Positions 15,080 to 64,000 of a stretch of 64,000 bases of DNA are shown piece after piece. The DNA is from Thermodesulfobacteriota bacterium (GTDB lineage: Bacteria > Desulfobacterota > Desulfobulbia > Desulfobulbales > SURF-16), in the NCBI GenBank assembly GCA_039715015.1, contig JBDLIE010000005.1:1-64000 (forward strand), given 5' to 3'. A program made the translations under genes and the position numbers. Positions within the stretch are counted from its first letter, which is position 1. Each line of letters starts with the position of its first letter. The notes beneath the pieces are model-generated. The model searched no databases and was not told the DNA's origin. It worked only from the letters and a program-made list of their open reading frames with translations.

Positions 15080-15097
15080 GCAGGGAGCAGAGAAAAG

Positions 15098-16527: not shown

Positions 16528-16569
16528 GAGTTTAATTCTCATTTTTCTTGCTATCTAAGGTAAAAGAGC

Positions 16570-16593
16570 TAAGATGACCACCTGGTCATCTTA
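16570..16593. promoter_or_regulatory. Perfect palindrome, putative TetR autoregulatory operator
   Basis: TAAGATGACCA-CC-TGGTCATCTTA abutting the tetR ATG and overlapping a TAAGAT -10-like hexamer. Confidence 0.7.
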
Positions 16594-17249: not shown

Positions 17250-17362
17250 GAATTTGAGGAATAAGAAATAAGAAGTTGAGAAGAAGGTACTTTTCTTTAT
17301 TGATAACCTTTCCTTCTATTTATTTCTCAACTTCTCAAATTCTTGTTTCTCAAATTCTCAAC
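17244..17362. repeat. Inverted 7/8-mer array, family A, gene-less site
   Basis: aaataagaatttgaggaataagaaataagaagttgag ... tatttctcaacttctcaaattcttgtttctcaaattct. Confidence 0.8.
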
Positions 17363-17385
17363 AATAATTCAACATAGATAGAAAA

Positions 17386-18480: not shown

Positions 18481-18608
18481 TGGCCACCTTGTACTCATAC
18501 AAAATGGCTAATTTTTTGAGACACCCTTGAGAAACTTTTTCAAAGAGGAGAATGAAGAAAAACTCAGAGTTAGAAGATCGTTCTCTTTTGTTGTGAGTAA
18601 TAAAAAAA

Positions 18609-46505: not shown

Positions 46506-46996
46506 AAAAACTTTTTTTATTGTGCACCCTGTTGCTATGTTTAGCCGCTTGCGGGCAGTCCCAACAGGCTCCAGAGCTGCAGGTCGGTGGACCAGCTCCT
46601 GGATTTTCCGGCCTTGATATTTCAGGTAATTCCTTTGACCTGGCTGATTTTTCTGGAAAGCCGGTTATTATTCGTTTTTGGTCAACTGAGTGTAATTACT
46701 GCCGGGCAGACACCCCTGTTTTTAATAAGTTGTACGCGAAATATCACGACAAGGGCCTACAAATTGCTTATATTAATACATTGTCAAGTTTGCCCCAGGT
46801 TAAAGAGTTTGTTGCTGATCTTGCTATTACATTCCCTGTCCTCATGGACGAGGATGGAACCATGGCGCGTAGCTACCAGGTGAAGCTTGTTCCCCAAACA
46901 ATAATTATCGATAAAAAACACAACATTGCTGCTGCTATTCTTGGCGGTGTCAGTGAAAAGGAAGTTATGGATTTGCTTCAGGAGGATTTGAAATAA
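46502..46996 (+). CDS. TlpA/ResA-type thioredoxin lipoprotein
   Basis: LAAC lipobox, FWSTECNYC, cis-Pro VP. Confidence 0.9.
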   Translation: MKKLFLLCTLLLCLAACGQSQQAPELQVGGPAPGFSGLDISGNSFDLADFSGKPVIIRFWSTECNYCRADTPVFNKLYAKYHDKGLQIAYINTLSSLPQVKEFVADLAITFPVLMDEDGTMARSYQVKLVPQTIIIDKKHNIAAAILGGVSEKEVMDLLQEDLK

Positions 46997-46997
46997 A

Positions 46998-47501
46998 ATG
47001 AGAACTTTGAAAAACATCTTTGTGGTCCTGTGTCTTGCTTTCTTGGCCTCTTCTGCTGTTGCCGTTGCCGAACCATTAGAAAATATTGCCGATGATAGCC
47101 GTTGCAATGTCTGTGGTATGTTTGTTGCCAAGTATCCCAATTGGCTCACCCAGGTTCATAGAGCCGATGGACAGGTTTCCCTTTTTGACGGGGTCAAGGA
47201 TATGATGGTCTTTTATTTCAACCCAGAGAAATATGGTGCCAAGGCAGACACTTTAAAGGATATTTGGGTAAAAGATTATTACACCATGAATTGGCTTGAT
47301 GGCCGTAAAGCCCTCTACGTTGTTGGTAGTGATGTTCATGGCCCCATGGGCCACGAATTCATCCCCTTTGCCAGTCATGAAGCAGCGGCATCTTTCTTAA
47401 AAGATCATTCTGGTAAAGCCATCCTTGCCTTTGATGATATTACCTCTGAAAAGGTGGAATCCATGCGCATGGGTATGAAGATGAAAATGAAGATGAAATA
47501 G
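46998..47501 (+). CDS. NosL-family metal chaperone with Met-rich tail
   Basis: CNVCGM, YVVGSDV.GPMG, C-terminal MRMGMKMKMKMK. Confidence 0.88.
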   Translation: MRTLKNIFVVLCLAFLASSAVAVAEPLENIADDSRCNVCGMFVAKYPNWLTQVHRADGQVSLFDGVKDMMVFYFNPEKYGAKADTLKDIWVKDYYTMNWLDGRKALYVVGSDVHGPMGHEFIPFASHEAAASFLKDHSGKAILAFDDITSEKVESMRMGMKMKMKMK

Positions 47502-49678: not shown

Positions 49679-50678
49679 CCCATGGAGTCTAGCCCTGTGT
49701 CTGCTTAGCGGACTCAGTATCTTTTTGATTGGGGTGGCCTGTAAAACGGCGATCAGGGTCATCCGCCAGTGGAACCCGGCCGCTGATAGCCAACAACAGA
49801 TTGAGCTTGAATCGGAGATTTGGCTGTCATCCACCCTGGTCCAGTATGGGCTTGGCTTTCAGATTATTTCCATGTTTCTCTACGTTCTGGCTGCAGATTC
49901 TTTTGCCCAGATGCTTTCCGGGGCCATGTGTGCCACCGGGTCTCTGCTGGCCAACGATTATGGCATTCCGCTTCTTGTTGTCAAAATTGCCGGCATGTTC
50001 CTGTACGGCTTGTGGATTGTTCTTCATCAGCTCGATATCAGCAGTGAGGAGTATCCTTTAGTACGGGTTAAATATGTCCTCCTTCTTTTTTTGCTGCCGC
50101 TGCTTGTCAGTGACACAGTCCTGTTGATTCTCTACCTGGCTGGATTGGAACCAGATATCATTACATCGTGCTGTGCAATTATTTTTGATGAAGGGGCCGG
50201 GGGCACGGTTCAGAATCTTTTCGGTGGACGGGGAGGGGAGGGGAGTTTGGCCTTTTATTACGGCTGGGCGATGCTTCTTTTCTGTCTTGGTTTTCTTGCC
50301 TGGTGGTGGCAGAAATTGGCCGCTTATCTTATCTACGGGATTGGTGTTGCCTTTTTTGGTGTTCTGGCACTGGAGACTCTCATCACTGTATTTTCATCGT
50401 ATATATACGCCATGCCCTTCCATAATTGCCCTTTTTGCATACTGAAGAAAGAGTATGGATATATTGGTTTTTTTATCTACATCCCCCTCTTTGTTGCTGT
50501 TTTCTGTGGCATCACTCCCATGCTTCTTGAGCCGTGTAAAAGAAAGAGTTCCATTGCCAGTACAGTAGCAACCATGCAGAAAAAACTTGTGGTTGTCTCC
50601 CTGGCCTCTCTGGCATTTTATGTCACCCTCTCGTCCTATCATTATCTTGCCTATACCCTGTTGGGAGGGGAGGGGTAG
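49668..50678 (+). CDS. Polytopic membrane protein with Cys motifs, unknown function
   Basis: About 8 TM helices; GAMCATG, ITSCC, HNCPFC. Confidence 0.8.
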   Translation: MFLNPWSLALCLLSGLSIFLIGVACKTAIRVIRQWNPAADSQQQIELESEIWLSSTLVQYGLGFQIISMFLYVLAADSFAQMLSGAMCATGSLLANDYGIPLLVVKIAGMFLYGLWIVLHQLDISSEEYPLVRVKYVLLLFLLPLLVSDTVLLILYLAGLEPDIITSCCAIIFDEGAGGTVQNLFGGRGGEGSLAFYYGWAMLLFCLGFLAWWWQKLAAYLIYGIGVAFFGVLALETLITVFSSYIYAMPFHNCPFCILKKEYGYIGFFIYIPLFVAVFCGITPMLLEPCKRKSSIASTVATMQKKLVVVSLASLAFYVTLSSYHYLAYTLLGGEG

Positions 50679-50730
50679 GCGAGGCTAAAGGGCTGGCTGT
50701 AAAGACGATGAGTACTTGGGGTACCAAGTA

Positions 50731-51258
50731 TCAGAGGGTGGGGGGGAATTTTTGGAGTTTGCGCTGCAGGGTGCGGCGATGAATACCCAGCTTCTTAGCG
50801 GCCTGTGAAATATTATTGTTGCAGTCGCTTAAAACACGGCTGATATGCTCCCACTCAACCCGGGCAAGGGATGGAGCACTGATGCTGTCATCTTCCATTT
50901 CACGGAGATCTTCCGATTCAAAGGCAGCTATAATATCTTCAACTTCAGCAGGTTTGGTGAGATAGCCGATTGCTCCAAGCTTAATCGCCTTGGTGGCTGT
51001 GGCAATGGAGCCATAACCCGTCAAAACTACGGCTCGTAGATCGGGGTGGTGCCGCATGCCAGTCCGGATGACGTCAAGTCCTGACTTCCCTTCCATCTTG
51101 AGATCCACAACGGCAAAGGCGGGCTTGTGTCGCGCAATGATCTCCACAGCCCCGATGTAGTTACTCGCAGTCTCTACGTCGAAGCCACGGCGCTCTAGGG
51201 CCTTGGATAAACGGTTCCGGAAAATATCCTCGTCATCAACAAGTAAAATGGTCGGCAT
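50731..51258 (-). CDS. regA: RegA/PrrA/ActR-family response regulator
   Basis: LTGYGSIATA, SLARVEWEHI.RVL..C..NIS.AA..LGIHRRTLQRKL. Confidence 0.9.
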   Translation of the reverse strand: MPTILLVDDEDIFRNRLSKALERRGFDVETASNYIGAVEIIARHKPAFAVVDLKMEGKSGLDVIRTGMRHHPDLRAVVLTGYGSIATATKAIKLGAIGYLTKPAEVEDIIAAFESEDLREMEDDSISAPSLARVEWEHISRVLSDCNNNISQAAKKLGIHRRTLQRKLQKFPPTL

Positions 51259-51263
51259 GGTTC

Positions 51264-52619
51264 TTACACCTCCAAATCAGAGTCTGTTTGGGTGGCTAAT
51301 GATTTGCTGAAAGAGATAGTTATAGTTGTTCCTGTGTCTTCATGGCTTTCAATATCGAGGGCCCCTTCGAGCTGGGTTGCCAACGATTTTGCCAGAAAAA
51401 GGCCAAGTCCCATACCCTTGCCAACAGGTTTTGTGGTGAAGAAAGGGTCTGTCGCCTGTTCAGCAACTTCTTGTGACATACCACAACCTTGATCAGTTAC
51501 TATGAAATAAATGTACTCGCCATCCTCTTTACATTCAAGGGTGATTTCTCCGTCAGGCGGGCTTGCATCTGCTGCATTGGATAACAGGCCCTTTAATGAC
51601 CAAGAGACAGCATGAGAGGGGACATGGAGTTGTTTGCTTGGAAGCATATTGTTTACAACAAGGTTTTGAGAGATATTGCCAAGCAATTCTCGAGCGCTTT
51701 CGATGAGTTCATCAGTGGTACTGGGAGTATGTTTTTCCCCTTGGATAGCGCCGGCATCTGCAGACATTTGAAAGAGGATCTTTTTGCAACGGTTGGTTTG
51801 TTCCCGAATGAGCTGGGCGTCATCTAAGAGATCTTTGTCATAGATTTCATTCTCACAATGATAGACCATTTCCCCTGATGCCAGACCAATGGTGGCGAGG
51901 GGGGTGGAGAGTTCATGGGCAGCCCCTGCAGCCAGGGTGGCAAGAGCGCTAAGCTTGTCGTTTTGCAGCTTTTCCTGGCGCAGCTTGGCAATGGTACGAT
52001 GATAGTCCCTGAGGGATTGTTGGATGCGTGAAGCGAAAAAGGTGATCAAAACGGCACTAACAGCATAGGCAAACCACATACCCTGTAGATGAAGATCCAT
52101 ATTAAAATTAGTGATATTGCAAACCTGCTGAACCTCCTGACTTGCCCCAGCTCCACTTTGTTTGAGAAGTGAGGGCAGAAACATGCCCCCATAAGAAAGA
52201 ATTGTAGAGATGGAAAGGCCCCAGGCAAGAAGAGATGATAACAAGATGGCGCCAAGGGTGATATGGACCAGATAGATAAAGGTAAATGGGTTCATTGTGC
52301 CGCCAGTAATATAGAGCAACCCTGTGAGAAGGATTATGTCGCCATATAAAGTCAGAGGCAGAAGATATTCAGGTGGTGGCTTTTGGTGGCTGTGAAGACG
52401 AAGAGCAAGGGCGGTGTTGGTAATAATTTCAACAATAATTACAGTACTGACGGCAAAGATAGGAAGGTCAAGATGGAAAAAGAATGAACCAATGGCAATG
52501 GTGAGAATCTGGCCAGCAACGGCCCACCATCGCAATTTGACTAACCAGTTAAGGCCAATACTCCGCGTATCATGGAGATTTTGTTGTGATTCTAAGCTGG
52601 TAAAAAGTGAGTGATGCAT
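51264..52619 (-). CDS. regB: RegB/PrrB/ActS-family redox sensor kinase
   Basis: LRWWAV.GQ, GGTMNPF, AAHELSTPL, RCKKIL, GMGLGLF. Confidence 0.88.
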   Translation of the reverse strand: MHHSLFTSLESQQNLHDTRSIGLNWLVKLRWWAVAGQILTIAIGSFFFHLDLPIFAVSTVIIVEIITNTALALRLHSHQKPPPEYLLPLTLYGDIILLTGLLYITGGTMNPFTFIYLVHITLGAILLSSLLAWGLSISTILSYGGMFLPSLLKQSGAGASQEVQQVCNITNFNMDLHLQGMWFAYAVSAVLITFFASRIQQSLRDYHRTIAKLRQEKLQNDKLSALATLAAGAAHELSTPLATIGLASGEMVYHCENEIYDKDLLDDAQLIREQTNRCKKILFQMSADAGAIQGEKHTPSTTDELIESARELLGNISQNLVVNNMLPSKQLHVPSHAVSWSLKGLLSNAADASPPDGEITLECKEDGEYIYFIVTDQGCGMSQEVAEQATDPFFTTKPVGKGMGLGLFLAKSLATQLEGALDIESHEDTGTTITISFSKSLATQTDSDLEV

Positions 52620-52748
52620 TTGGTGTTGATTTAATAATTAATAGAAAAAATGCTCTTAATTAAAACACGTTAGCATATCAATTTTATGGCTGCTAGGTAT
52701 TTGAAAAAAGGCTTTGGCATAGCTTGGTGAAAAGGGAAAAAACAGGCC

Positions 52749-52771
52749 TATGCGACAATTTGCCACATTTT
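52749..52771. promoter_or_regulatory. RegA-box-like operator (copy identical to 62678-62700)
   Basis: tatGCGACAattTGCCACatttt, 23/23 identical to the site upstream of torD. Confidence 0.75.
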
Positions 52772-52880
52772 TCCGGTCGGCAACTTGTGTTCATGTGAAT
52801 CCTTTACATATTTCTGATGAGCGAACCCAAGTAAACATTGAATATTTACCCTTTTATCCTTCTGCTTGTTATGTTGAGAC

Positions 52881-53180
52881 ACCTTAAACAGCATCATCGT
52901 CGATAAAACCCGCGAATATTTTTGCAAGCATGGGTTTGACATAACAACCAATGAATTCCCTGATCATCTTGTTGTTGAGCTTGACTTCATCGCCTCGCCT
53001 GAGGATGAAAAAGAGGCCAGCAGCGAAGAATTTCTGCGCATCTATTTCCGGCCTTGGTTTGGTCAATTTCGCAACCTTGTTTGTAAAGAAGTTGAGGTTC
53101 GCGATATTAAAGCGGCTGTGGAGGGGGTAGATTTTTTCACGAGCAATGAGACTGACGCGGACTCGGACCAGGCCGCTTAA
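52881..53180 (+). pseudogene. 5'-truncated remnant of a TorD/DmsD-family chaperone gene
   Basis: Translates TLNSIIVDKTREYF...EFPDHLVVELDF...SSEEFL..YFRPWF...DFFTSNET, colinear with 63169-63441; in-frame TGA just upstream, no start. Confidence 0.85.
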
Positions 53181-53376
53181 GATTAGAGCCCTAGAAGGCA
53201 TATTTTTTTATGGTCTTCATCCATTTGGACACTTTGAATTAGTCCTACTCCGCGCCGCCGCACACCCTTGCGGCTGTCAATGAAATCTCCCCCCCCCCTT
53301 CACCTGCCGCGGGAAACACTCCCCTTTGCGGGGCGAGAATAGAAGCCCCTTCCCAGCCTGCGACACTTCACCAATC

Positions 53377-53392
53377 TGCGACAATTCGCCAT
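53377..53392. promoter_or_regulatory. Degenerate RegA-box-like site upstream of the TonB receptor
   Basis: tGCGACAattCGCCAT, with a further GCGACA half-site at 53360. Confidence 0.5.
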
Positions 53393-53491
53393 ATTGATAA
53401 AAATTGTATCGGTGGTGTTAACTATTCCTAGAGATTTTCAAGTCTCTGAAATGAATCTTATTTTTTAACTTTAACAAGAGAGTACTGAGGC

Positions 53492-55588
53492 ATGATTCTG
53501 CGATGCAATGAACGTACTTTATTGCGCGCTGCCCTGGTTACCGGGACAGCGGCATTCTTTGTTTTGCCGCAACAGGTTTTTGCGGCTGAAGACCAGGTTG
53601 TCGAACTCAGTGACGTTGTTATCACGGCCTCCAGGATCAGTCAGCAGGTTAAGGATGCCCCGGTTGCCATCAGTATTGTTTCCGAACAGGAACTGGACAA
53701 AATAAAGGCCAGGAATCCGCAAGAGTTTCTTTCCAGGGTCCCAGGTGTCAACTCCAGTAACTTTGGCGGTGAATCAGAGCTTACCTCCATCAGGATACCA
53801 ACCCATTTCACCAATCCATATACCGTTGTGTTGGTTGATGGCGTGCAGTATGGCAGCTATGGTTCCGGTAGCTCGAGCCAGTTTCGGGAGATTAACCTCA
53901 ACAACATCGCACGTATCGAGGTGATCAAAGGGCCTGCCTCAGCTCTGTATGGCAGTAACGCCATCGGCGGTGTCATTAACGTGATCACCAAGGAGCCTTC
54001 AGCTTTCCCCCAGGCCAGGATCTGGTCGGAACTGGGAGATTACAGGCAATGGCGGGCCGGCGTCTCCGGCAGTGGCGGATTTGATAAACTCAGCTATTTT
54101 ATCGACGCCAATCACACCGATACGGAAGCTGCCCGGGAGCATAGTGGTGTTGATAAGCAGTCTGGCTCCGTGAAGTTGAACTATACCGCCACTGATGTGT
54201 CATTGCTGACCTTTAAAATAGACTATGTCACTGTCGAGAATGACTCCCCAGGCTCTATTAACCAGGATGATTTCGAAGAAGACTGGCTGCAGAGTTATCA
54301 TAATTTTGCCTACAACAAGTCAGACAGGGTGGCACCTGCCCTCTCCTATGTCCATTATCTTGATGCTGCTGAGATGCGGGCAATTTTTGTCTTACGGGAC
54401 ACTGAGGAGGAAACCATACCTAACTACAGCATTCGCCAGCTGACCTTTGGCCCATTTCCACGCCCCTATATTGGCAGTTATACAGAGGATGACAGTCTCG
54501 ATATGAGCCTGCAGCTCTTATATAGTCACGACCTCTCCCTTTGGCGCAGCAAGGTAATTGTCGGCCTTGATACGGAGTATGGCAGCAAATATTCAAAGAC
54601 CTATGACCTTTCGGTATCCTATGACAGCGCTCTCAACAAATATGAGAGCTATACCTTAGGGGACCTCGACAAGTCCTATGATATGACAACCAAGGTGGCA
54701 GCGCCATATCTGCAGCTCGAGAGTTCCCCTTGGAAAAAGCTGCGCATAACTGTCGGCGCCCGCTATGACTCGGCCCGGTATGAAGTTGAAGATCAATTGA
54801 GCAACAGCATTGAAAACAAGCGGGGGTTTGCCAAGACCAGCCCCAAAGCCGGTGTTACCTATGATATTAATGCCAACCTCAACACCTATGTCAGTTACTC
54901 AAAGGGCTTTGTTGTGCCCACCACTAGTCAGCTGTGGACCTCGCGCTATGACAACGCCGATCTGGATCCTGAAAATGCCGAAAATTATGAGGTCGGTCTG
55001 CGCAGCAGCTTTATGAACAGACGTCTTAGGCTCGACATCTCTGTTTATGATATGACTATCACAGATAAGATCGTTATCAACAACACCCCGGCGCCGAATA
55101 CCCGCTACATAAATGCGGGTAAGAGCTCACAGAAAGGCATCGAGGTAATGACCTCTTACGCGCCGCTGGAAAGCGTTCAGTTGAGTGTTGCCTACACATA
55201 TGCCCGCAACAAGTATGAATCTTATAGTGATCAGGGTGTCGATTATAGCGGCAACTGGCAACCGCGCTCCCCTAAACATCACCTCAACGCCCGCCTGTCT
55301 GTATTCCCAGTCGACGGTGTAGAGGTCGAGCTGGAAATGGATGAGGTCAGCAGCCAGTTTGCTGACGACGCCAACCTTTTTGAGTACACCAGGCCTACCC
55401 TTTTTAACCTCCGCGCCTCATACTACTGGAAGCGCTTCACTTTCTGGGGCCATATCCTGAATCTTACCGATAAGGAGCATGCAAACTATATGAGCTATAG
55501 TACCTCGGAAGACACCATGACCCTCTTTCCTGGTATTGCCAGAACGGCATTTGTCGGCCTTTCCTATCGGTTCGGAGGAGACAAGTAG
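53492..55588 (+). CDS. TonB-dependent outer-membrane receptor
   Basis: Signal peptide, DVVITASR TonB box, RIEVIKGPASALYGSNAIGGVIN plug, C-terminal YRF. Confidence 0.95.
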   Translation: MILRCNERTLLRAALVTGTAAFFVLPQQVFAAEDQVVELSDVVITASRISQQVKDAPVAISIVSEQELDKIKARNPQEFLSRVPGVNSSNFGGESELTSIRIPTHFTNPYTVVLVDGVQYGSYGSGSSSQFREINLNNIARIEVIKGPASALYGSNAIGGVINVITKEPSAFPQARIWSELGDYRQWRAGVSGSGGFDKLSYFIDANHTDTEAAREHSGVDKQSGSVKLNYTATDVSLLTFKIDYVTVENDSPGSINQDDFEEDWLQSYHNFAYNKSDRVAPALSYVHYLDAAEMRAIFVLRDTEEETIPNYSIRQLTFGPFPRPYIGSYTEDDSLDMSLQLLYSHDLSLWRSKVIVGLDTEYGSKYSKTYDLSVSYDSALNKYESYTLGDLDKSYDMTTKVAAPYLQLESSPWKKLRITVGARYDSARYEVEDQLSNSIENKRGFAKTSPKAGVTYDINANLNTYVSYSKGFVVPTTSQLWTSRYDNADLDPENAENYEVGLRSSFMNRRLRLDISVYDMTITDKIVINNTPAPNTRYINAGKSSQKGIEVMTSYAPLESVQLSVAYTYARNKYESYSDQGVDYSGNWQPRSPKHHLNARLSVFPVDGVEVELEMDEVSSQFADDANLFEYTRPTLFNLRASYYWKRFTFWGHILNLTDKEHANYMSYSTSEDTMTLFPGIARTAFVGLSYRFGGDK

Positions 55589-56640
55589 TGCCTTCTTTTT
55601 CAGGTGGTATACCGGGGCTTAAGGGCTCGGTCTGTTTTCTGACTTCAGTTATGCCGTTTCTTTTGCTGGGCGTTGCGACAGTGACTGAGGCGCAAGGGCT
55701 TCCCCCTTTGCGCCTCGCCCTTTCGCCCACTGCCCCTGTCGGTGAAGAATGCCTAGCGCATGGTCAAGGCGGCCCTGCCAAGGGCGGCAAGGCTGTAGAT
55801 GACCGGCGGCCGGTACTTGAGTCAGAGCATAGACCACTGCCTGTCCGCACCTACCACTTCAACGCTCATCGTCGCTTGGCCGATGTAAAGGCCTATGTCC
55901 GGCATCCCGATGGCACAGTAGATGTGCCTGAACTTCGCCTGGGGGCCAATCCGCAACTTACTTTTAAAACACCCTTTGGCGATGGCCCCAATCATGGGGC
56001 ACACAATGTCTATGTTGTCGAGCAGGGCGTTGAGGGAGATGTCCTGGTTGTCCGCACCGCAAAATGGATTGTCATGCACCATAGCTGCGGTTGGGGACAT
56101 GATCAAAAATTTAATGAGCAGCTCACCCAACCTCAACCTCTTGAGTCCATTCCCATGGAAATTCTGATCTCAGACCTTTGGGACGGCAATTTCCACTTCC
56201 GGGTGACCACAGGTCAAAAACTTTCAATAACAGTGCTGCGGAATGGTCACCCCCTTGCCAAAGCCCGGGTAAGCGTGAGGAGTGAGCAAGGCTGGGTCAA
56301 AGAGGTAGATGCAGATAAAGATGGTGTCGCCACCTTTCAGCTGATCAGGGATTATTACCCCACCAGATGGCAGGAGTTTCACCGCACCCGGCGGGGCGAG
56401 TTTTTGGCCACGGCAACCTACGAGGCAGAGGAGCACGGCGAATATAAAGGGATACCGTATGGGCGTGTGCGCTATATCACAACCCACCCCTGGACCTATG
56501 GCCCTTCAAGCTGGGACTATGCCTCCTATTCGATGGGTTTGCTGATCGCCGTCATTGCCATGGCCCTTACCGGTGGCGGTGTATTTATCTATCGTGAACG
56601 GCGCAAAAAGCCTTATCAGGAGATTGTTTTTGAAGAGTAA
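55588..56640 (+). CDS. Periplasmic protein with C-terminal membrane anchor (DUF4198-like, tentative)
   Basis: GGAGGAG RBS before GTG; MHHSCGWGH; G.PLA.A.V...D.DG.ATF; C-terminal TM helix. Confidence 0.7.
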   Translation: MPSFSGGIPGLKGSVCFLTSVMPFLLLGVATVTEAQGLPPLRLALSPTAPVGEECLAHGQGGPAKGGKAVDDRRPVLESEHRPLPVRTYHFNAHRRLADVKAYVRHPDGTVDVPELRLGANPQLTFKTPFGDGPNHGAHNVYVVEQGVEGDVLVVRTAKWIVMHHSCGWGHDQKFNEQLTQPQPLESIPMEILISDLWDGNFHFRVTTGQKLSITVLRNGHPLAKARVSVRSEQGWVKEVDADKDGVATFQLIRDYYPTRWQEFHRTRRGEFLATATYEAEEHGEYKGIPYGRVRYITTHPWTYGPSSWDYASYSMGLLIAVIAMALTGGGVFIYRERRKKPYQEIVFEE

Positions 56641-57619
56641 ACTGCAGACCGCCATCAATAACTGTAATGTCAGCCGCTTTCGGTTTTACGTGCAGATCTT
56701 CAGCTTTGCACTCCTCGTTTATGGTGGATACCTGGCCATAAATATTGGCGACCAGTTGCCAACCTTTGCGTGTGTGTTCGATCAAATGAGGGGAGGGGCC
56801 TGCTACCTCATGGGCCTGCAGCATCAGATGACCACCCCCTTCAAGAGCTATTTCAGCGGCCGGGGCATTGGTATGCTGACTGGGCTGCTGACTTTTTTTC
56901 TCTTTTTTATCGCCCTCAACAAGGCCTGGTGCGGTTTTGTTTGCCCCCTTGGCACCCTTCAGGACTGGCTGAGCAGCCTGCGCCGTAAATTCGGGATCCG
57001 GTACGCAACGTACTCGGCACAGAATTTCAAGGGCCTCGGTACCATCAAGTATATCCTGCTGGCCCTGTTGATTCTTCTCCCCATGGCCATAGGCAACAGC
57101 TTTTTCGGCCTGCCCAAGCTCAATCATGATTTTGGCGTGCCGTTCTGCATGATTTGTCCGGGGAGAACCCTGCTCCCGGTTTTTCATGGTGATTTTTCGC
57201 AGTTCATCATCGATTTCAGTTCAAAGACCAAGATGGTCTTCACGGCCCTGGGTATGGCGGTGACAGGTATGTTATTGGCCGGCGCCTTTGCGAAGAAGCG
57301 GTTCTTCTGCCTCTTTTGCCCGATGAGCGCCTTTCACTATATCTTCCACAAGGCAGGCTTGCTGCGCCTTACCAAGGATGGCAGCAAGTGCACCCGTTGC
57401 GGAAACTGTTACCGGGCCTGTGATGTTGGTATCCATGCCATCGCCGATGACTTGACCCATAAAAATATTATCAAGGATGATTGCATGATGTGCCTGAAAT
57501 GCATTGAAGCATGCCCGGAGGAAGATTGCCTGAAGGCTTCTTTTTTTGCAATGCCGGTTTATGAGTCAAGCGCCCAAGGGTTTTTTAAAAGGATGCAGGG
57601 GAAATGTCATGGAAAATGA
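56630..57619 (+). CDS. Membrane 4Fe-4S protein (NapH/MauN/CcoG-like)
   Basis: WCGFVCP, FCMICP, FCLFCP, CTRCGNCYRAC, CMMCLKCIEACP; TTG start after GGAG. Confidence 0.9.
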   Translation: MKSKLQTAINNCNVSRFRFYVQIFSFALLVYGGYLAINIGDQLPTFACVFDQMRGGACYLMGLQHQMTTPFKSYFSGRGIGMLTGLLTFFLFFIALNKAWCGFVCPLGTLQDWLSSLRRKFGIRYATYSAQNFKGLGTIKYILLALLILLPMAIGNSFFGLPKLNHDFGVPFCMICPGRTLLPVFHGDFSQFIIDFSSKTKMVFTALGMAVTGMLLAGAFAKKRFFCLFCPMSAFHYIFHKAGLLRLTKDGSKCTRCGNCYRACDVGIHAIADDLTHKNIIKDDCMMCLKCIEACPEEDCLKASFFAMPVYESSAQGFFKRMQGKCHGK

Positions 57620-58922
57620 ACGACTAAGGCGAGTGCGGAAGACGACCCTTCTTCATTTGGCCATGGAGGCCAAGAACACCCTGCTGAAGATAGAAGAAGA
57701 GTTTCCCGATAACCCGGCGGCAATGGACTACTTCTACACGCTCTATAAGGATGTATTCAACGACGAGCCGAAGCTGCCCACCGATAAGAAAATTATCGGG
57801 ACGATGTGCGTCCAGGTCCCCCAAGAGCTTATACATGCTGTTGGGGCATTCCCCTTACGGTTATGCAATGGGGCTAGTGCCTATGATCAGGTAGGTGCCG
57901 AGTTTATGCCTGCCAAGTCCTGCCCTGTGGTGCGGGCGACAATGGGCATGCTTCATGTCGACCAGGCGCTGTGGGGGGAATCCCTGCAGGCCGTCGTCAT
58001 CCCTACCACCTGCGACCAAAAGAAAAAATCATGCCAGATTCTTGCCGATATGGGCTACCCAGTCTATGCCCTGGACATGCCAGCGACCAAGGAGAGCGAG
58101 GCCTCTCGTTTTTATTGGCAGGAGTCGATAAAAAAATTCACCCTGGATATGCAAAAAATAACCGGGGTGAAAATAACTGCAAAGCGTGTCCAGGCAGCCA
58201 TAGCAAAAGTAGCCTCAGCATCATCCCTGTACCGGAAGTTGCAGGAATTGCGAAAATCTGATTATGCCCTGATTCTTGGCAAGGATATGTTTTTGGTCAC
58301 CAATGCCTATTTTTTTGATGAAATTGATCGCTGGCAGCAGTCTGTCAGCCGGCTGGTCGCCGAATTGGAAGAACGTAAACGAAACGGCTTTAGCGCCGGC
58401 AAGCGCCAGGCCCCACGCATCCTTTTTACCGGTTCGCCACCAATATTTCCCAACCTCAAGGTTCCCATTCTGGTGGAACAGGCCGGCGGGGTTATCGTGG
58501 CAGATGAAACCTGCTCGTCGGGAAGACTTCTCTATGATTCCGTTGCCTTTGATGAAGCAACTCTCAACGACATGATTCCCGCTCTTGCCGACCGCTCCCT
58601 GAAGCCCTGCACCTGCCCATGTCTCACCCCAAACAAGGACCGGCTGCGGAAGCTCATTAACATGGCCAAAGAATTTGAGGCCGATGGCGTTGTCTATCAG
58701 GCTTTTTCTGGTTGCCTCCCCTATGAAATGGAGCAGAAGCAGGTTGCCAAGGCCCTGGCCGAAGCCGAAGTGCCGATGCTATATGTTGAAACCGACTATA
58801 GCCCTGAAGATATGGGGCAGCTTTCCACACGGATAGAGGCCTTTATCGAATCGATCCTGGCCCGGAGAAGAAAAAAGAAGGTTGCCCAGCTTCATCAGAA
58901 GGCAGGTGAGGAAGGCTCGTGA
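57609..58922 (+). CDS. 2-hydroxyacyl-CoA dehydratase D family; double-cubane cluster protein (DCCP)-like reductase
   Basis: GTMCVQVP, RLC, SCP, TTCD, ETC, CTCPC, SGC, ETDYS..D.GQL.TRIEAF. Confidence 0.8.
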   Translation: MENERLRRVRKTTLLHLAMEAKNTLLKIEEEFPDNPAAMDYFYTLYKDVFNDEPKLPTDKKIIGTMCVQVPQELIHAVGAFPLRLCNGASAYDQVGAEFMPAKSCPVVRATMGMLHVDQALWGESLQAVVIPTTCDQKKKSCQILADMGYPVYALDMPATKESEASRFYWQESIKKFTLDMQKITGVKITAKRVQAAIAKVASASSLYRKLQELRKSDYALILGKDMFLVTNAYFFDEIDRWQQSVSRLVAELEERKRNGFSAGKRQAPRILFTGSPPIFPNLKVPILVEQAGGVIVADETCSSGRLLYDSVAFDEATLNDMIPALADRSLKPCTCPCLTPNKDRLRKLINMAKEFEADGVVYQAFSGCLPYEMEQKQVAKALAEAEVPMLYVETDYSPEDMGQLSTRIEAFIESILARRRKKKVAQLHQKAGEEGS

Positions 58923-59734
58923 ACTACTTTGCAGGTATTGATATCGGTTCGACCTCGATAAAGATTGTTCTGGCCGACGACAATGAACAGATTGTTGCCT
59001 CAGATGTCTGTCCGACTGGCAGTTTTTTTCATAAAAATACCATGACTGCCTTTGCTGGTTTATTGACCCAAAAAAATATCGATCGCCAGGAGGTGGTCTA
59101 TATCATTTCCACCGGCTATGGCCGTAAGCTTTTCAAAGAGTCCGACGAGACTATCAGCGAGATCACTGCCAATGCCATTGGCGCCCGTAAAATCGGTGAG
59201 CGCTATGGCCAGACACGGACAATCATCAATATTGGCGGCCAGGACTTGAAGGTAATTCTTCTTGATGACGAGGGCCATGTTAAAAACTTTGCCATGAACG
59301 ACAAGTGTGCGGCTGGTACCGGCCGCTTTCTGGAGATGACTGCCCGCAACCTGGAGGTTGAGGTTGATGAGCTTGGTGACTTTCATGAAAGGTGCGCCAC
59401 TATTCCGTTAATCATTAACAGCACCTGTACTGTGTTTGCCGAGTCTGAGATTATCAGCCTGCTCGCCAACGGTCATGGCAAAGAAGAACTCATTACCGGC
59501 ATTCACTATTCCGTTGCCAGAAGGGTAGCGCGTCTGGCAAAACGCCATGGCGTAGAGGACATGGTCTTCTTTGATGGCGGGCCTGCCTTAAATCAGGGTC
59601 TTGTTAAGGCCCTGGAGGATGAGTTGATGCACCGGGTTGTTGTCCCCGACACTCCACAGATTACCACCGCCTATGGTGCTGCCTTGTTGGCCAGGGACGC
59701 CTATCTCTGTGAAGACGAGGTGGTTAATGGCTGA
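58919..59734 (+). CDS. BadF/BadG/BcrA/BcrD-type ATP-dependent activator ([4Fe-4S] archerase)
   Basis: GIDIGST, TGYGR, IGGQD, MNDKCAAGTG, STCTVFAESE. Confidence 0.93.
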   Translation: MNYFAGIDIGSTSIKIVLADDNEQIVASDVCPTGSFFHKNTMTAFAGLLTQKNIDRQEVVYIISTGYGRKLFKESDETISEITANAIGARKIGERYGQTRTIINIGGQDLKVILLDDEGHVKNFAMNDKCAAGTGRFLEMTARNLEVEVDELGDFHERCATIPLIINSTCTVFAESEIISLLANGHGKEELITGIHYSVARRVARLAKRHGVEDMVFFDGGPALNQGLVKALEDELMHRVVVPDTPQITTAYGAALLARDAYLCEDEVVNG

Positions 59735-60332
59735 ACTCTTCAGCTTTCTCGGCCTCGGTGTACTGTACGGCTGCACCATGTGTAGCTTTACCTGCCTGCC
59801 ATACCTGGGCATCTATCTCATGGGTACTGGCCAGGGTTTTGGCGACGGGGTGCGGGCATCGTTTTTTTTTCTGCTGGGAAAGGTTTGCACCTATACCTTG
59901 TTCGGGGCCTTGGCCGGGGCCTTGGGGATGGTCCTTGATTTGAGCGCCACCCAGGGCAAGGTATTGGGCCTTGTCTTGATAACGACCGGTATTTTCTTGC
60001 CCTTTGTGGCCAGGAAGCAATGCCAGGGGACTTGCCGGCAATCAGGGAAAAGACTCTCTCTCTTTTCCCTGGGCATGGCCACCAGTCTGTTACCATGCCC
60101 GCCCTTGGCTGCGGTTTTTCTTGTGGCTGCCCAAAAAGGCTCCTGGCTCCTGGGGGCAGGATACGGAGCGCTGTTCGGTCTGGGCCTTTTTGTGTCGCCG
60201 CTCCTGCTGGCTGGAGGAGGGCTGGCCCATATAACAAAGACAATCCAGTTTGAAGCAAAGGGATTCACCCCCTACCTGCAGGGTATTTCCATGTTGATAA
60301 TAGTAGTGATTGGTCTGCGAGTTTTTATCTAA
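59727..60332 (+). CDS. DsbD_2/UreH-like membrane protein
   Basis: CTMCSFTC, G+..TY...GA..G, LLPCPP. Confidence 0.75.
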   Translation: MAELFSFLGLGVLYGCTMCSFTCLPYLGIYLMGTGQGFGDGVRASFFFLLGKVCTYTLFGALAGALGMVLDLSATQGKVLGLVLITTGIFLPFVARKQCQGTCRQSGKRLSLFSLGMATSLLPCPPLAAVFLVAAQKGSWLLGAGYGALFGLGLFVSPLLLAGGGLAHITKTIQFEAKGFTPYLQGISMLIIVVIGLRVFI

Positions 60333-60338
60333 GGGGGA

Positions 60339-60773
60339 ATGGCTATGGAATGGCTTAAGGATGTCATTGATTATGGAATAATTGGTTTCTTGCTGGTGAT
60401 GAGTGTGGTTGCATGCGCCATCGCCATAGAAAGGTTCTTGGTTTTTCGTTCTATCAGGCTTGACGACTACCCCAACAAGCAGCTCTTGCAGATTGAGCTC
60501 ACCAAAAAGCTGCATGTCATTGCGATCATCGGCAGCAATGCCCCCTATTTGGGTCTGCTTGGCACGGTCCTCGGTATTATGCTGACCTTCTATAATCTGG
60601 GCCGGGAAGGCTTTATGGATACCAGCGAGATAATGGTGGGTTTGGCCTTGGCCCTGAAGGTAACAGCTGTTGGCTTGGTCGTGGCGATTCCGGCCGTTTT
60701 TCTTTATAATATGCTGCTGCGCCAGGCAAAGGTGCTGATGTTGCAATGGGAGAGTACCCATGGACGAGACTGA
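60339..60773 (+). CDS. exbB: ExbB (short form)
   Basis: GSNAPYLGLLGTV.GIM.TF, IM.GLALALK.TA.GL.VAIP. Confidence 0.92.
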   Translation: MAMEWLKDVIDYGIIGFLLVMSVVACAIAIERFLVFRSIRLDDYPNKQLLQIELTKKLHVIAIIGSNAPYLGLLGTVLGIMLTFYNLGREGFMDTSEIMVGLALALKVTAVGLVVAIPAVFLYNMLLRQAKVLMLQWESTHGRD

Positions 60774-61140
60774 GTTCAATACCTTGAATGTGATCCCCCT
60801 CGTCGATGTGATGCTGGTCTTGCTGACCATTGTTTTGATGACATCGACTTTTATTGCGGTGGGCGGACTTTCCATTGAATTGCCGCAAGCCGCCGGGGAA
60901 AAAGTGGAAATGTTAAAGACGCTGACCATCGAAATAGATAGTGAGGGCACCATATTTCTTGAGGCCGCGGCAATATCACTTGCCGGGTTGACTGATTCCT
61001 TGGCCGGAACCGATAAGGAGACACCCCTAATCATCCGGGCCGACAAGAAATTGGCCTTACAACATTTTGTTGAGGTGATGAGTGCGGCAAAGGCTTTGGG
61101 TTTCACCAAGGTAAGCCTGCAAACCGAGGTGACCTCATGA
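60760..61140 (+). CDS. exbD: ExbD
   Basis: NVIPLVDVMLVLLTIVL. Confidence 0.92.
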   Translation: MDETEFNTLNVIPLVDVMLVLLTIVLMTSTFIAVGGLSIELPQAAGEKVEMLKTLTIEIDSEGTIFLEAAAISLAGLTDSLAGTDKETPLIIRADKKLALQHFVEVMSAAKALGFTKVSLQTEVTS

Positions 61141-61871
61141 ATTATCAAGGCTGGGGCTTAGGAATATCCATGATGCTCCATGGCCTTTTGGCCTGGGGGC
61201 TGTTGAGCACAATTACCACTTCCACCCTGAATCCCTTGGACGGCAAGAGCCGGATAAGCCTTGATTTCTGCCTGCTGCCTCTCCAGGCGGTGGTGCTGGC
61301 ACAAAGCTCACCATCTCCGCCCCAACCTAGGAAGGTGGTGAAAAAAAAACCAGCCACGCCTGTCAAGGTGCGGGAGATAGCCAAACCTGAAGCCAGCAAG
61401 AAAAAAACTGTCGTTGCCGAAAAACAACCCGATCCGGCCCAGGTTGCCCCGGCACTGGCTGAAGAACGGCTGGTTGCCAAACAGGAAGTTGGAGCTGAAG
61501 ATTTGCCGCCAGCCGGCTTTAGCGAGGCTGGGCCGGGCACGGCTGACGAGGCTGCCACCGTTCCGCAGGCTTCTCTGCAAGCCGCCAAACGGCAGCAGTA
61601 TGTTGATACCTATTTTTCTGATATCTGCCAAAAGATACAGCAAAACATGCGTTATCCCAAACTAGCCCGCCGTATGGGCCTGGAAGGGAAGGTTGTGGTC
61701 TCATTTATGGTTCATAAAGATGGCAATATTGATGATGTGCGTATAGTGCAAAGCTCCGGGGTGAGAATTCTTGATAAAAACGCCATTGATACCATAAAAA
61801 ATACGGCCCCCTTTCCGAAGCCGCCGATCACTGCCGAGTTGATTGTGCCGATCAAATACGGTTTGGTCTGA
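61137..61871 (+). CDS. tonB: TonB
   Basis: SxxLH TM, Pro/Lys linker, YPKLARRMGLEG.V, SSG..ILD. Confidence 0.92.
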   Translation: MNYQGWGLGISMMLHGLLAWGLLSTITTSTLNPLDGKSRISLDFCLLPLQAVVLAQSSPSPPQPRKVVKKKPATPVKVREIAKPEASKKKTVVAEKQPDPAQVAPALAEERLVAKQEVGAEDLPPAGFSEAGPGTADEAATVPQASLQAAKRQQYVDTYFSDICQKIQQNMRYPKLARRMGLEGKVVVSFMVHKDGNIDDVRIVQSSGVRILDKNAIDTIKNTAPFPKPPITAELIVPIKYGLV

Positions 61872-62677
61872 AACCGTTGATCCTTGCAGGTCTTCTTGCC
61901 TGTAATCCCATGGCAGGTAATGTAACTGCCTGCTGTTAATGGCTTTTTCCAAGACTCTCATTTCATCGACTTAGATACAAATCCAAAGACCTGGCAGGTA
62001 TCGGCTAGGTGCTTGGATTTTGTGGTACTTGAGCGAGAATCAAACTCGAACGGGCGCAATGTCAAACCGCTTTGAAAATTAACCTCTCAACCGCGTCCAA
62101 TTTTGCCCCCTTATTTTAAACAAAAGAGATCATTTTCTGTTTTTCAACCTCCAATTCTCCCTTGTGAAGAGTGTCATTGCAGGGCCAATCAGCAACCGGT
62201 TCTTTACGGAGCGTCAGGGGCTCAGTCGGGGTGATTCTTGCCAAGGCGGTTGGCTCCTACTCTCTGGCAATGGTGCGGTGTCACTCGCTTAAGGATTGCT
62301 GAATGTGCGAGACGAAAAAGGTCGTTAAAATTGCACTTATGGCAGAAGCAAGCTCCATACCCTATAGATGAAGGTCCATATTCAAGGTAGTAATAGTGCA
62401 AACCTGCTGGAAAAGAAATGAACCGATCTTGATCGTAAGAATTTGGCTGGCCACGGCCCACCAACGTAATTTTAGCAGCCACAAGAGACCAATTCGCTTG
62501 GTGTTATGAGTATTTTGCTAAGGATTCAGTCTGCTTAGAAAAGTGGGATCCATTGTGTTTGGTTGAGGTGGAAGGGAAGGTGTCGACTGAATCAAAATCA
62601 GCACATCAACCTCAAGCCCGCCAACCACCTAAGGGACACTTTCTCAATATCTTTTGGCCAAAAGGATCAACGAGACT

Positions 62678-62700
62678 TATGCGACAATTTGCCACATTTT
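62678..62700. promoter_or_regulatory. RegA-box-like operator upstream of torD/molybdoenzyme operon
   Basis: GCGACAattTGCCAC at 62681-62695. Confidence 0.75.
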
Positions 62701-62892
62701 CCCTGCCGCTAACTTGTGTTAAGGAGAATCGTTTACAAGGAAAAGGTGAATTGGCCTAAGTATGCAATGCTTATACAAAATTCATTCTCTTATTTTTTTT
62801 AACGAGTATGTAAAGCTCCTTTGAATATTTGATTCTCATTTTTTTTATTTTGTAATGAGTACACCAATATATTCTGACAACCACGGTATCTT

Positions 62893-63444
62893 ATGTCAGC
62901 AGCAGACGAGCCAATCAGGCTTGCAGAAATCTATCGTTTCCTGGCGCAGACCATGCGCTATCCAGAGTCATCATGGTTCCATGATGACTATCTCTCTGTT
63001 TTTAAAGAGATGCTCGTTCAGCTTGAGTGGCAAGATAACGTCAATGCCCTTCCTGAGAGGATTACTGACGAGATCCTTGAAGAGATTCAGGTTGATTACA
63101 CCCGCCTTTTTATCAATGCCGTTCCTCATGTTATAGCCCCTCCTTATGCCTCGGTATATATCGATGGTACCTTAAATAGCACCACTGCTGATAAGACCCG
63201 CGAGTATTTCCGCCAGAAAGGCTTCGATACCACAAACACCGAGTTCCCTGACCATCTTGTTACTGAACTTGATTTCCTGTCCTTGCTTGAGGATGAGAGT
63301 GAGGGCAGTAGCGAAGAATTTTTAACCCAATATTTTCGCCCCTGGTTTGAGATGTTTCGCGATCTTGTTCTAAAAGAGGTTGAAGTTTCATACATCAAAT
63401 CAGCCATTGAACTAATAGATTTTTTCACCACCAATGAGACCTAA
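62893..63444 (+). CDS. TorD/DmsD-family redox-enzyme maturation chaperone
   Basis: DYTRLF, PPYASVY, EFPDHL..EL.FL. Confidence 0.92.
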   Translation: MSAADEPIRLAEIYRFLAQTMRYPESSWFHDDYLSVFKEMLVQLEWQDNVNALPERITDEILEEIQVDYTRLFINAVPHVIAPPYASVYIDGTLNSTTADKTREYFRQKGFDTTNTEFPDHLVTELDFLSLLEDESEGSSEEFLTQYFRPWFEMFRDLVLKEVEVSYIKSAIELIDFFTTNET

Positions 63445-63544
63445 GCGGGCTGTGAACAGGCCGCTTAATATATGAGTCTACAAAGCATATTTTTTTTGAA
63501 GCTTACTGTTTCAAATAATTAAAACCTGAGGGAGGTAAGAGAAT

Positions 63545-64000
63545 ATGGCTTTCAACTTAACAAGACGTAAATTCCTGCAAACGGCTTCGCTTGCAGCGGC
63601 TTCTGTGCCGTTGGCAAATGTTGTCGCTGCAGAGGCCGGCGTTGCCAAGTCGCCATTTACACCGTCTGGTACCATTGCAGATAAAACTGCTGTTGGCGGT
63701 ATCTGTGAGATGTGTTTTTGGCGCTGTCAGCTTGTCGGTAAGGTTCGTGACAACAAGCTCATGAAGCTTGAGGGTAACCCCAAGTCGATTGACAACGGCA
63801 AGGCGATTTGTGCCCGCGGTAATGCCGGTGTCCAGCTTCTTTATGATAAGGATCGTCTCAAGTACCCCATGAAAAATGTCGGTAAGCGTGGTGCTCCTAA
63901 GTGGAAGAGAATCTCCTGGGACGAAGCCCTTGATACCTGTGCCAAGAAGCTGAAAGCCACTGAGAAGAAGTTTGGCGCCAAGGGTATCTGTATGTTTCCC
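63545..64000 (+). CDS. Tat-exported molybdopterin oxidoreductase catalytic subunit, PsrA/PhsA-like (partial; absent from ORF track)
   Basis: Manual translation MAFNLTRRKFLQ...CEMCFWRC...LEGNP...CARG...DRLKYP...RISWDEA; GGAGG RBS; runs off window. Confidence 0.9.
   Translation, partial: MAFNLTRRKFLQTASLAAASVPLANVVAAEAGVAKSPFTPSGTIADKTAVGGICEMCFWRCQLVGKVRDNKLMKLEGNPKSIDNGKAICARGNAGVQLLYDKDRLKYPMKNVGKRGAPKWKRISWDEALDTCAKKLKATEKKFGAKGICMFP

Follow-up and report, generated by a model that had tools for sequence, protein, structure and literature searches.

The nine-gene operon

The subject of this analysis is a nine-gene operon near the end of a 64,000-nucleotide (nt) stretch of DNA, hereafter the window, which comprises positions 1 to 64,000 of contig JBDLIE010000005.1 from a Thermodesulfobacteriota bacterium (assembly GCA_039715015.1). 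The operon, hereafter also the module, is conserved and mobile, and encodes a TonB-dependent outer-membrane receptor and a putative periplasmic metal-binding protein together with a predicted double-cubane cluster protein (DCCP), a combination which suggests that the DCCP helps anaerobes to obtain a scarce trace metal. An original prediction for this locus, made without database searches, described nine tightly coupled genes between 53492 and 61871 with no second dehydratase subunit, CoA-transferase, or ABC importer among them. All nine open reading frames (ORFs) are present in that interval and were assigned to families with Pfam and NCBIfam as follows (lengths in amino acids, aa):

53492..55588, + strand: TonB-dependent outer-membrane receptor, 698 aa (Plug and barrel, Pfam)
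55588..56640, + strand: p2, periplasmic His/Cys protein with a predicted DUF4198 fold and a C-terminal membrane anchor, 350 aa
56555..57619 (ORF; probable start ~56630), + strand: NapH-like four-helix membrane polyferredoxin, 329 aa (Fer4_5)
57609 (ATG)..58922, + strand: predicted DCCP, HGD-D family, 437 aa (NF040772)
58919..59734, + strand: DCCP-R type activase ATPase, 271 aa (BcrAD_BadFG, TIGR00241)
59727 (real start)..60332, + strand: DsbD_2 family membrane protein, 201 aa (PF13386)
60339..60773, + strand: ExbB, 144 aa (TIGR02805, 165.2 bits against a cut-off of 135.35)
60760..61140, + strand: ExbD, 126 aa (PF02472, 93.8 bits against 25.4)
61137..61871, + strand: TonB, 244 aa (TonB_C, 77.1 bits against 24.6)

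The successive junctions, computed after the starts of three ORFs had been fixed by preceding stop codons, are -1, an overlap, -11, -4, -8, +6, -14, and -4 nt. The two family searches identified neither a second HGD-D subunit, nor a CoA-transferase, nor an ABC importer among the nine genes, as predicted; the ABC genes further upstream, at 43-50 kb of the window, are part of another cluster. Also upstream, 6 kb from the operon and in a separate cluster (46502-47501), are genes for a TlpA-like thioredoxin and a NosL copper chaperone. A promoter and terminator scan of 52600-62900 returned no more sites than were found in shuffles.

A divergent, predicted double-cubane protein and its activase

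Double-cubane proteins were described in 2018 as enzymes with a nitrogenase-like cofactor that reduce acetylene, azide, and hydrazine, and PMC7317905 and PMC9351452 state that their physiological function is unknown. The family motif given in PMC7317905 comprises seven Cys, six of which are ligands of the [8Fe-9S] cluster. The 437-aa protein passes the NF040772 double_cubane model marginally (364.6 bits against a cut-off of 350) and aligns over residues 33-416 with the crystallized DCCP of Carboxydothermus hydrogenoformans (6ENO; expect value, E, 2.9e-77). Residue 33 is aligned to residue 37 of the 6ENO chain, and the N-terminal extension of the long class is kept. All seven motif Cys (C67, C86, C105, C135, C302, C336, and C369) are present, align with those of 6ENO without gaps, and are conserved in every one of the 25 relatives compared from related loci, which bears out the earlier claim of a double-cubane rather than an ordinary dehydratase Cys pattern. 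The motif Cys are spaced by 18, 18, 29, 166, 33, and 32 residues; the first spacing, printed as 19 in the review (PMC7317905), is 18 here, identical to that of 6ENO. On this alignment the 437-aa HGD-D protein is a predicted double-cubane protein, and it is the only NF040772 match in the whole genome (365 bits in the genome search).

The neighboring ATPase matches BcrAD_BadFG (E 1.9e-54) and TIGR00241 (239.2 bits against a cut-off of 125.4), and all 21 relatives keep its two cluster-bridging Cys, C130 and C170. Its gene overlaps the 3' end of the DCCP gene by 4 nt, and the operon pairs a single HGD-D subunit with an archerase-type ATPase.

In the order, the double_cubane model matches 188 of 401 genomes, mostly at ~470-505 bits, with module copies near 365 bits; all 28 p2-positive genomes of this sample have a double_cubane match. 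Five high-scoring, canonical DCCP loci of the order were fetched, and these encode a DCCP and an activase with 31-33% and 38-42% identity, respectively, to the proteins of the window. None of the other seven module genes was identified within ~9 kb of any of the five. Therefore, the linkage to TonB is a property of one branch of DCCPs rather than of DCCPs generally, and the module DCCP is, judged by scores and gene neighborhoods, a divergent, TonB-linked branch.

Conservation, distribution, and mobility

A search with the DCCP, with one genome per species, recovered six loci, the sixth of which is a 2.3-kb contig with DCCP, activase, and DsbD_2 genes. The five loci with enough flanking sequence all hold the nine genes in identical order. 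A metagenome scan with the p2 alignment added 36 loci, and genome searches added five more contexts. In all, 46 loci were counted, with L019 and L029 dropped as duplicates of L006 and L028, and a gene was scored only on contigs that reach its expected place:

NapH-like gene after p2: 40/40 loci
DCCP gene after the NapH-like gene: 28/28 loci
activase gene in place: 23/24 loci
DsbD_2 gene in place: 18/21 loci
ExbB gene in place: 18/20 loci
ExbD gene in place: 15/18 loci
TonB gene in place: 15/18 loci
receptor gene upstream of p2: 34/38 loci

One locus (L005) begins inside the DCCP gene and was left out of the p2 and NapH-like counts, which would otherwise be 45/46 and 40/41. All four receptor misses have <800 nt upstream of p2, and part of the downstream misses reflect a contig end (L015 stops within exbD) or an inserted gene (L028 has a 135-aa ORF at the place of ExbD). 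One genome of the order sample carries the entire module on one closed contig. The DCCP pair thus occurs together with the receptor, periplasmic protein, and membrane protein genes in other genomes, and the expectation of such conservation was upheld. The genes that flank the module vary between loci, and no further conserved gene was found beside it.

The loci that lack DsbD_2 are L014 (genome G329), L016 (G242), and L028; the gap between the activase gene and exbB is ~145 nt in L014, and L016 also lacks an activase gene beside the DCCP gene. Such natural variants may indicate which components can be dispensed with. Two loci depart from the common layout in other ways. In a distant version of the module (L017, genome G113, 8243-17254), a gene for an extracytoplasmic function sigma factor immediately precedes the p2-like gene, the receptor gene is followed by a canonical DUF4198 gene (E 4.5e-32), and no exbBD-tonB genes are nearby. 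In L015 (G086, 4484-18560), three genes for TonB-dependent receptors surround the core, together with a second Fer4_5 membrane protein of 432 aa.

Of 400 other genomes of the phylum that were sampled, 5 encode a p2 homolog; for the order, the corresponding sample of 400 yielded 27 (16 of 83 genera, including that of the window). Within the genus, p2 was identified in one of the seven other genomes. In the window, the module lies between two foreign gene fragments:

52881..53153, + strand: torD-like gene fragment at the left edge (tblastn, 68% identity to residues 93-183 of the resident TorD-like protein, 62893-63444)
62263..62409, - strand: regB-like kinase fragment at the right edge (tblastn, 67% identity to residues 164-212 of the resident kinase, 51264-52619)

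Since these fragments resemble insertion scars, the module looks horizontally acquired.

The periplasmic protein p2 and the membrane polyferredoxin

The p2 protein has a signal peptide, 15 His, and 3 Cys, and hydropathy places a signal helix at residues 15-33 and a membrane anchor at residues 312-330. Its match to the DUF4198 model (PF10670) covers residues 205-252 only and reaches 23.7 bits against a gathering cut-off of 34, which places p2 outside the family at the level of the model. Profile searches with p2 gave no meaningful sequence match in the PDB. Approximately 170 homologs were identified, nearly all of them unnamed. Among 32 aligned sequences, H81 (in ESEHRP), H136, H165, C167, and H171 (in HHSCGWGH), and H203 are invariant; H164 is kept in at least 90% of sequences; and the C-terminal membrane helix is followed by a conserved basic tail that is predicted to be cytoplasmic. 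An AlphaFold (AF2) model of p2 has a predicted local distance difference test (pLDDT) score of 80.3, and its best Foldseek match is Zcp (9MHM; E 8.4e-10, template-modeling score 0.62 by target); the nickel-bound DUF4198 structure 9GCB was also matched (E 1.1e-6). As described in PMC12663993 and PMC12537917, Zcp of Neisseria gonorrhoeae (PDB 9MHL-9MHN) and IsDUF4198 of Ideonella sakaiensis (9GCB) are periplasmic metal-binding proteins, often encoded beside TonB receptor genes. The modeled fold of p2 and its invariant His and Cys point to a transition metal as the cargo.

The NapH-like protein matches Fer4_5 (E 4.7e-12) and has two 4Fe-4S motifs. It scores below the cut-offs of the NapH models (73.8 against 234 bits for PRK09477; 67 against 213 for TIGR02163). 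By its predicted architecture (four helices, CX3CP, and two 4Fe-4S motifs) it is NapH-type, and it is not a member at the level of the models. The protein ends in a cytoplasmic ferredoxin domain and has no fused Ig-like domain, which sets it outside CcoG/FixG, and the CcoG model is absent among its 25 NCBIfam hits at E <=0.01. The membrane part matches no solved structure, and the model of the protein gave no Foldseek match at E <=0.001. All 29 relatives compared share 16 Cys, and mean column identity is 75% (26 sequences). From hydropathy and charge, two invariant Cys pairs are predicted in periplasmic loops, and a CX3CP pair, a CXXCP pair, and the two 4Fe-4S motifs on the cytoplasmic side. 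The periplasmic loops are among the most conserved parts of the protein.

A complex of the NapH-like protein with p2 was predicted with a score of 0.49, the best control reaching 0.00; at least 74% of contacts recur between runs, with a partner pLDDT of 68 or more. Among 157 solved complexes, 116 attained the mark applied to such scores, as did 2 of 215 mismatched pairs, and scores that passed it at <=0.60 came from only 18 of the 157 solved complexes plus both of the mismatched pairs that passed.

The receptor and the DsbD_2 protein

The receptor matches the Plug (88.7 bits, E 4.4e-25) and barrel (150.5 bits, E 1.8e-43) models, and with these domains and the ExbB-ExbD-TonB energizer genes it fits the definition of a TonB-dependent receptor (Plug and 22-strand barrel, with an energizer); the whole genome encodes three such receptors in all. 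The nearest solved chains are YncD (6V81, E 4.1e-37) and PqqU (9C4O, E 7.7e-35). The receptor scores below every substrate-specific NCBIfam cut-off (154 against 1200 bits for PqqU; 168 against 600 for BtuB), and its best NCBIfam match is a generic siderophore-receptor model (186.6 bits against a cut-off of 223.5). Between loci, identity among receptors ranges from 24 to 85%, compared with 45 to 89% among NapH-like proteins; the receptor has therefore been swapped around an unchanging core. A second receptor type and the extra receptor of related loci match only the plugs of YncD/PqqU, CntO, or BtuB, and their substrate is not identified by these matches.

The DsbD_2 protein is a member of PF13386 (56.4 bits against a cut-off of 24.9), and C19, C23, C99, and C124 are kept in 17 of 17 relatives. 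No PDB sequence match was found. Among its structural neighbors in the ESM Atlas are fusions of DsbD_2 with HMA, cupredoxin, or FtrD-like domains; one Atlas feature neighbor is named UreH-like, and a faint match to RcnA was found (E 0.0035).

Regulation

The region ahead of the module holds an operator-like box and a resident two-component system that is a candidate regulator:

53377..53398, + strand: conserved 22-nt operator-like box, ~95-115 nt upstream of the receptor start
50731..52619, - strand: resident RegB/RegA-like two-component system (kinase at 51264-52619)

The box is located ahead of the receptor gene in 14 of 19 distinct loci, and the commonest 7-mer is likewise found in 14 of these 19 receptor upstream regions; in three loci (L013, L014, and L027) the box is a full inverted repeat. 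A matrix built from the sites upstream of receptors in related loci finds 6 sites of at least 22.5 bits in the 3.0-Mb genome, 3 of them in the window. One of these, at 52751-52772, precedes the divergent RegB/RegA-like genes (33.2 bits), and the best-scoring copy (34.7 bits), at 62680, is ahead of a TorD-like/PhsA-like molybdoenzyme operon. This operon, downstream of the module (contig C5, 62893-66596), encodes a TorD-like chaperone, a PhsA-like molybdopterin oxidoreductase of the thiosulfate/polysulfide reductase type, and a 4Fe-4S subunit. Outside the window, a weaker box at ~4301 of contig C6 (- strand) is ahead of a DUF2202 ferritin-like gene with a peroxiredoxin. Two further sites, each of 23 bits, precede genes for a C_GCAxxG_C_C redox protein (C38, ~24313) and a cation-diffusion-facilitator efflux protein (C41, ~10818), and these two may be chance matches. 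The sites outside the window hint at a small redox or metal regulon. A sigma-54 promoter reading of the box was dropped on inspection: on the reverse strand, GG and GC are one base too close together, and a promoter in that orientation would drive non-conserved upstream genes.

The best full-length matches of the two-component pair are the ActR/PrrA/RegA model (187.6 against 250 bits) and the ActS/PrrB/RegB model (224.7 against 350 bits); since both scores are below cut-off, we refer to the pair as RegB/RegA-like only. A RegA-like regulator adjoins the module in L037, as does a RegB-like kinase in L006. In combination with the position of the boxes, this makes it plausible that expression of the module is controlled by a redox system of the RegB/RegA type and probably not by a riboswitch or a repressor specific to one metal. 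Rfam detected no RNA family in positions 50000-64000 of the window at E up to 1 and no riboswitch adjoining the module in 21 related loci. The only riboswitch matches were three cyclic di-GMP-I aptamers in a row in L021 (2958-4675), 3-5 kb upstream of the module and ahead of unrelated genes.

Proposed mechanism

We propose that the nine genes constitute a complete and horizontally mobile unit by which cells of anoxic, sulfidic habitats acquire a trace metal that is scarce and thiophilic, with TonB as the source of energy, and we place the probability of this reading at about 0.5. In the proposed sequence of events, the receptor, powered by its own ExbB-ExbD-TonB, would bring a metal species into the periplasm, where p2, docked against the NapH-like protein, would capture the metal with its His/Cys site. 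On the cytoplasmic side, the activase (DCCP-R) would use ATP to push low-potential electrons into the double cubane of the DCCP and onward into the 4Fe-4S clusters of the NapH-like protein, which would reduce the metal or its ligand in the way that CcoG reduces Cu(II). The reduced metal would then be released and passed on through Cys-lined membrane proteins, with the DsbD_2 protein as an accessory thiol or metal path.

The original prediction had coupled TonB import to an ATP-driven reductive step through a polyferredoxin/DsbD_2 pair. This prediction is partly supported. The general idea is the best supported of those considered, as the Cys pattern is that of a double-cubane protein and the gene set is conserved; however, DsbD_2 is absent from 3 of 21 loci and so is not an obligatory part of the conduit. 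A more specific version holds that the DCCP of this branch is an ATP-powered electron injector for the membrane polyferredoxin, rather than a soluble small-molecule reductase, and delivers very-low-potential electrons to a metal at the periplasmic face. We regard this version as doubtful.

Candidate metals and alternative explanations

A metal complex, a tetrapyrrole, or a sulfur or selenium compound had originally been considered as cargo. Of these, a metal ion or small metal complex is favored over a tetrapyrrole by the predicted DUF4198 fold of p2, the exchange of receptors, and the lack of a cobalamin or other riboswitch at the loci screened. Among metals, copper is the leading candidate, with nickel and cobalt next, and we advance copper only tentatively. 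In the order sample, NosL was detected in 27 of 28 p2-positive genomes and in 191 of 373 p2-negative genomes (one-sided p ~0.016 when stratified by family), whereas the canonical DCCP, included as a control, was not enriched (9 of 28 against 146 of 373). In four loci (L006, L028, L037, and L043), genes for NosL, a TlpA-like thioredoxin, or a YHS protein are directly beside the module. The co-occurrence of NosL, these adjoining genes, the fusions of DsbD_2 to HMA or cupredoxin domains, and the analogy to CcoG are weak hints of copper. Likewise, the genome already encodes CbiM (nickel/cobalt), ZnuA (zinc), and three ModA-type genes (molybdenum/tungsten), which weakly leaves room for copper by elimination; NicO was not found in the inventory of metal transporters of the genome.

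Several observations weigh against these interpretations. The flow of electrons from the DCCP to the NapH-like protein is one that we infer only, and PMC7317905 describes the double cubane of the characterized DCCP as being itself the catalytic site for small molecules, accessed by narrow channels. The predicted complex supports contact between p2 and the NapH-like protein only weakly. With respect to copper, the association with NosL is weak once relatedness is allowed for, and NosL is near-universal in several of the families that carry the module. Reduction of Cu(II) does not need a very low potential, and copper alone therefore does not explain an ATP-driven double cubane. The receptor family has no conserved Cys and no CxxxM-HxM copper site of the OprC type, and no metal-specific regulator site or riboswitch was found for the module. 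Finally, the two DUF4198 proteins characterized in PMC12663993 and PMC12537917 favor zinc and nickel, and the nickel-binding one disfavors copper.

The last of these points leads to an explanation that we consider fairly unlikely, but more credible than those that follow: that the metal is nickel or cobalt (or zinc), captured by p2 and moved by DsbD_2 as a UreH/RcnA-like permease. The reductase would in this case act on the ligand shell (sulfide, polysulfide, or thiolate), since these ions are not themselves reducible in cells. Such a cargo is consistent with the reports that IsDUF4198 binds nickel with a dissociation constant (Kd) of 18 nM and has TonB receptors and NikR as gene neighbors (PMC12537917) and that Zcp, solved with zinc, copper, and cobalt, binds zinc, cobalt, nickel, and copper in vitro (PMC12663993). 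It is also consistent with the UreH-like and RcnA resemblances of DsbD_2 and with the second-type receptor, for which the metallophore receptor CntO ranks directly behind YncD/PqqU among solved relatives. Yet p2 has no His directly after the signal peptide, a feature that PMC12537917 describes as the mark of most DUF4198 proteins. Moreover, a CbiM-type nickel/cobalt importer and ZnuA are already encoded in the genome, and no NikR, Zur, or B12 element adjoins any locus examined. The invariant residues of the membrane proteins are Cys, rather than the His/Asp motifs of nickel/cobalt permeases.

It is less probable still that the receptor imports a small organic cofactor or a sulfur or selenium compound that crosses the inner membrane via DsbD_2/NapH-like and is reduced at the cytoplasmic double cubane of the DCCP, with the NapH-like protein only feeding DCCP-R or anchoring the enzyme. 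This would agree with the catalytic role of the double cubane and its narrow channels in the characterized enzyme, with the long-class N-terminal extension kept by the module DCCP, and with the organic cofactor carried by YncD and PqqU, the nearest solved relatives of the receptor. Two rhodanese genes beside L035 also fit, and they are the sole fact that bears on a sulfur or selenium cargo. Nonetheless, p2 has the predicted fold of metal-ion-binding proteins, with invariant His and Cys, and an exchange of receptor types around a constant p2, NapH-like protein, and DCCP is better explained by one element that occurs in several forms than by one organic ligand. A 201-aa DsbD_2 protein that is missing from some loci would make a poor obligatory permease, and the strong conservation of the periplasmic loops of the NapH-like protein also weighs against this explanation.

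A further explanation is the reductive release of iron from very stable ferric chelates, such as those of catecholate siderophores. Ferric catecholates have a very low reduction potential, which would justify an ATP-boosted reductant, and the best NCBIfam match of the receptor is to a siderophore-receptor model. Induction of DUF4198 genes by iron limitation is reported for several bacteria (PMC12663993; bioRxiv 10.1101/2021.01.07.425746), and clusters of PepSY, DUF2271, DUF4198, and TonB receptor genes have been proposed to encode periplasmic ferric reductases (bioRxiv 10.1101/2021.01.07.425746). We nevertheless consider iron very unlikely: neither the module nor its immediate surroundings hold a siderophore permease (ABC or otherwise), an esterase, or a Fur-type element; Fe(III) is a poorer fit than soft metals to the invariant Cys-rich sites; and ferrous iron is expected in the anoxic, sulfidic sediments that the record names of the metagenome-assembled genomes suggest as the habitat of carriers.

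The least credible explanation is that the module sends low-potential electrons outward, so that a metal(loid) or sulfur species in the periplasm is detoxified or respired, with the receptor only raising access to the substrate. In its favor, a RegB/RegA-type redox box is ahead of both the module and the PhsA-like operon next door, and periplasmic reductases are the usual partners of NapH-type proteins (bioRxiv 10.1101/2021.01.07.425746). Against it, a system that consumes ATP for every electron runs contrary to respiration, scavenging of scarce nutrients is the typical task of a TonB-dependent receptor that has a dedicated energizer, and the module encodes no catalytic subunit of a periplasmic reductase.

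Significance

Our proposed trace-metal module bears on how anaerobes are supplied with metals that sulfide makes almost insoluble, and it offers a candidate electron donor for metal reductases of the CcoG/NapH type. A branch of DCCPs that is linked to an importer, a putative metal protein, and a polyferredoxin also makes the role of DCCPs experimentally addressable in terms of which metal is involved, in which direction electrons flow, and what phenotype results. If the DCCP does act as an electron injector, anaerobes could strip copper or another soft metal from sulfide or polysulfide complexes that resist ordinary reductants. Double-cubane proteins would thereby gain their first physiological role, and TonB-dependent metal uptake its first ATP-coupled reductive step. 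Literature searches on DCCP, on DUF4198, and on TonB with 2-hydroxyglutaryl-CoA dehydratase or NapH returned no description of the module, and a search for papers with both "double-cubane" and "TonB" returned none, with subscription-only papers and preprint supplements outside the scope of these searches.

Comparison with known systems

A known parallel to the membrane polyferredoxin of the module is CcoG (FixG/RdxA), described in PMC7558416 as a NapH-type polyferredoxin and cupric reductase with an Ig-like periplasmic domain and an unknown electron donor. CcoG and the NapH-like protein are both multi-helix membrane proteins with CX3CP-type Cys motifs and two cytoplasmic 4Fe-4S clusters (predicted for the latter). 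In the module, however, the Ig-like periplasmic protein (p2) is encoded by a separate gene directly upstream, and the putative reductant system is encoded directly downstream. The two extra invariant Cys pairs in the predicted periplasmic loops of the NapH-like protein likewise distinguish it from CcoG and the NapH family.

On the uptake side, TonB-dependent import is common to the module and to the NosA/OprC copper receptors, which have been proposed to provide periplasmic enzymes with copper when oxygen is absent (PMC7558416). The module receptor differs in the lack of the CxxxM-HxM site and in its nearest solved relatives, YncD and PqqU. Similarly, p2 resembles Zcp and IsDUF4198 in fold (by Foldseek), in predicted periplasmic location, and in its richness in putative His ligands, but it has a 40-residue linker in place of the N-terminal His, an added HHSCGWGH segment, and a C-terminal membrane anchor with a conserved basic tail.

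Two further kinds of system are alike in overall plan. In the PepSY/DUF2271/DUF4198/TonB-receptor clusters, a transmembrane electron carrier accompanies the TonB receptor and the DUF4198 protein for a proposed reductive metal-uptake step (bioRxiv 10.1101/2021.01.07.425746). FtrABCD-type systems are echoed by the FtrD-like polyferredoxin fused to DsbD_2 that is among the structural neighbors of the DsbD_2 protein. Unlike the module, both kinds of system use flavins or the ordinary membrane redox pool, and to our knowledge none of them includes an ATP-hydrolyzing archerase and a double-cubane protein.

Finally, the DCCP and DCCP-R of C. hydrogenoformans (6ENO and 7YYL) share with the module a single-subunit HGD-D protein of the long N-terminal form with seven Cys and an adjacent archerase-type ATPase with two bridging Cys. 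The module DCCP differs from that of C. hydrogenoformans in being encoded together with a membrane polyferredoxin, an anchored and putatively metal-binding periplasmic protein, and the genes for TonB-dependent import.

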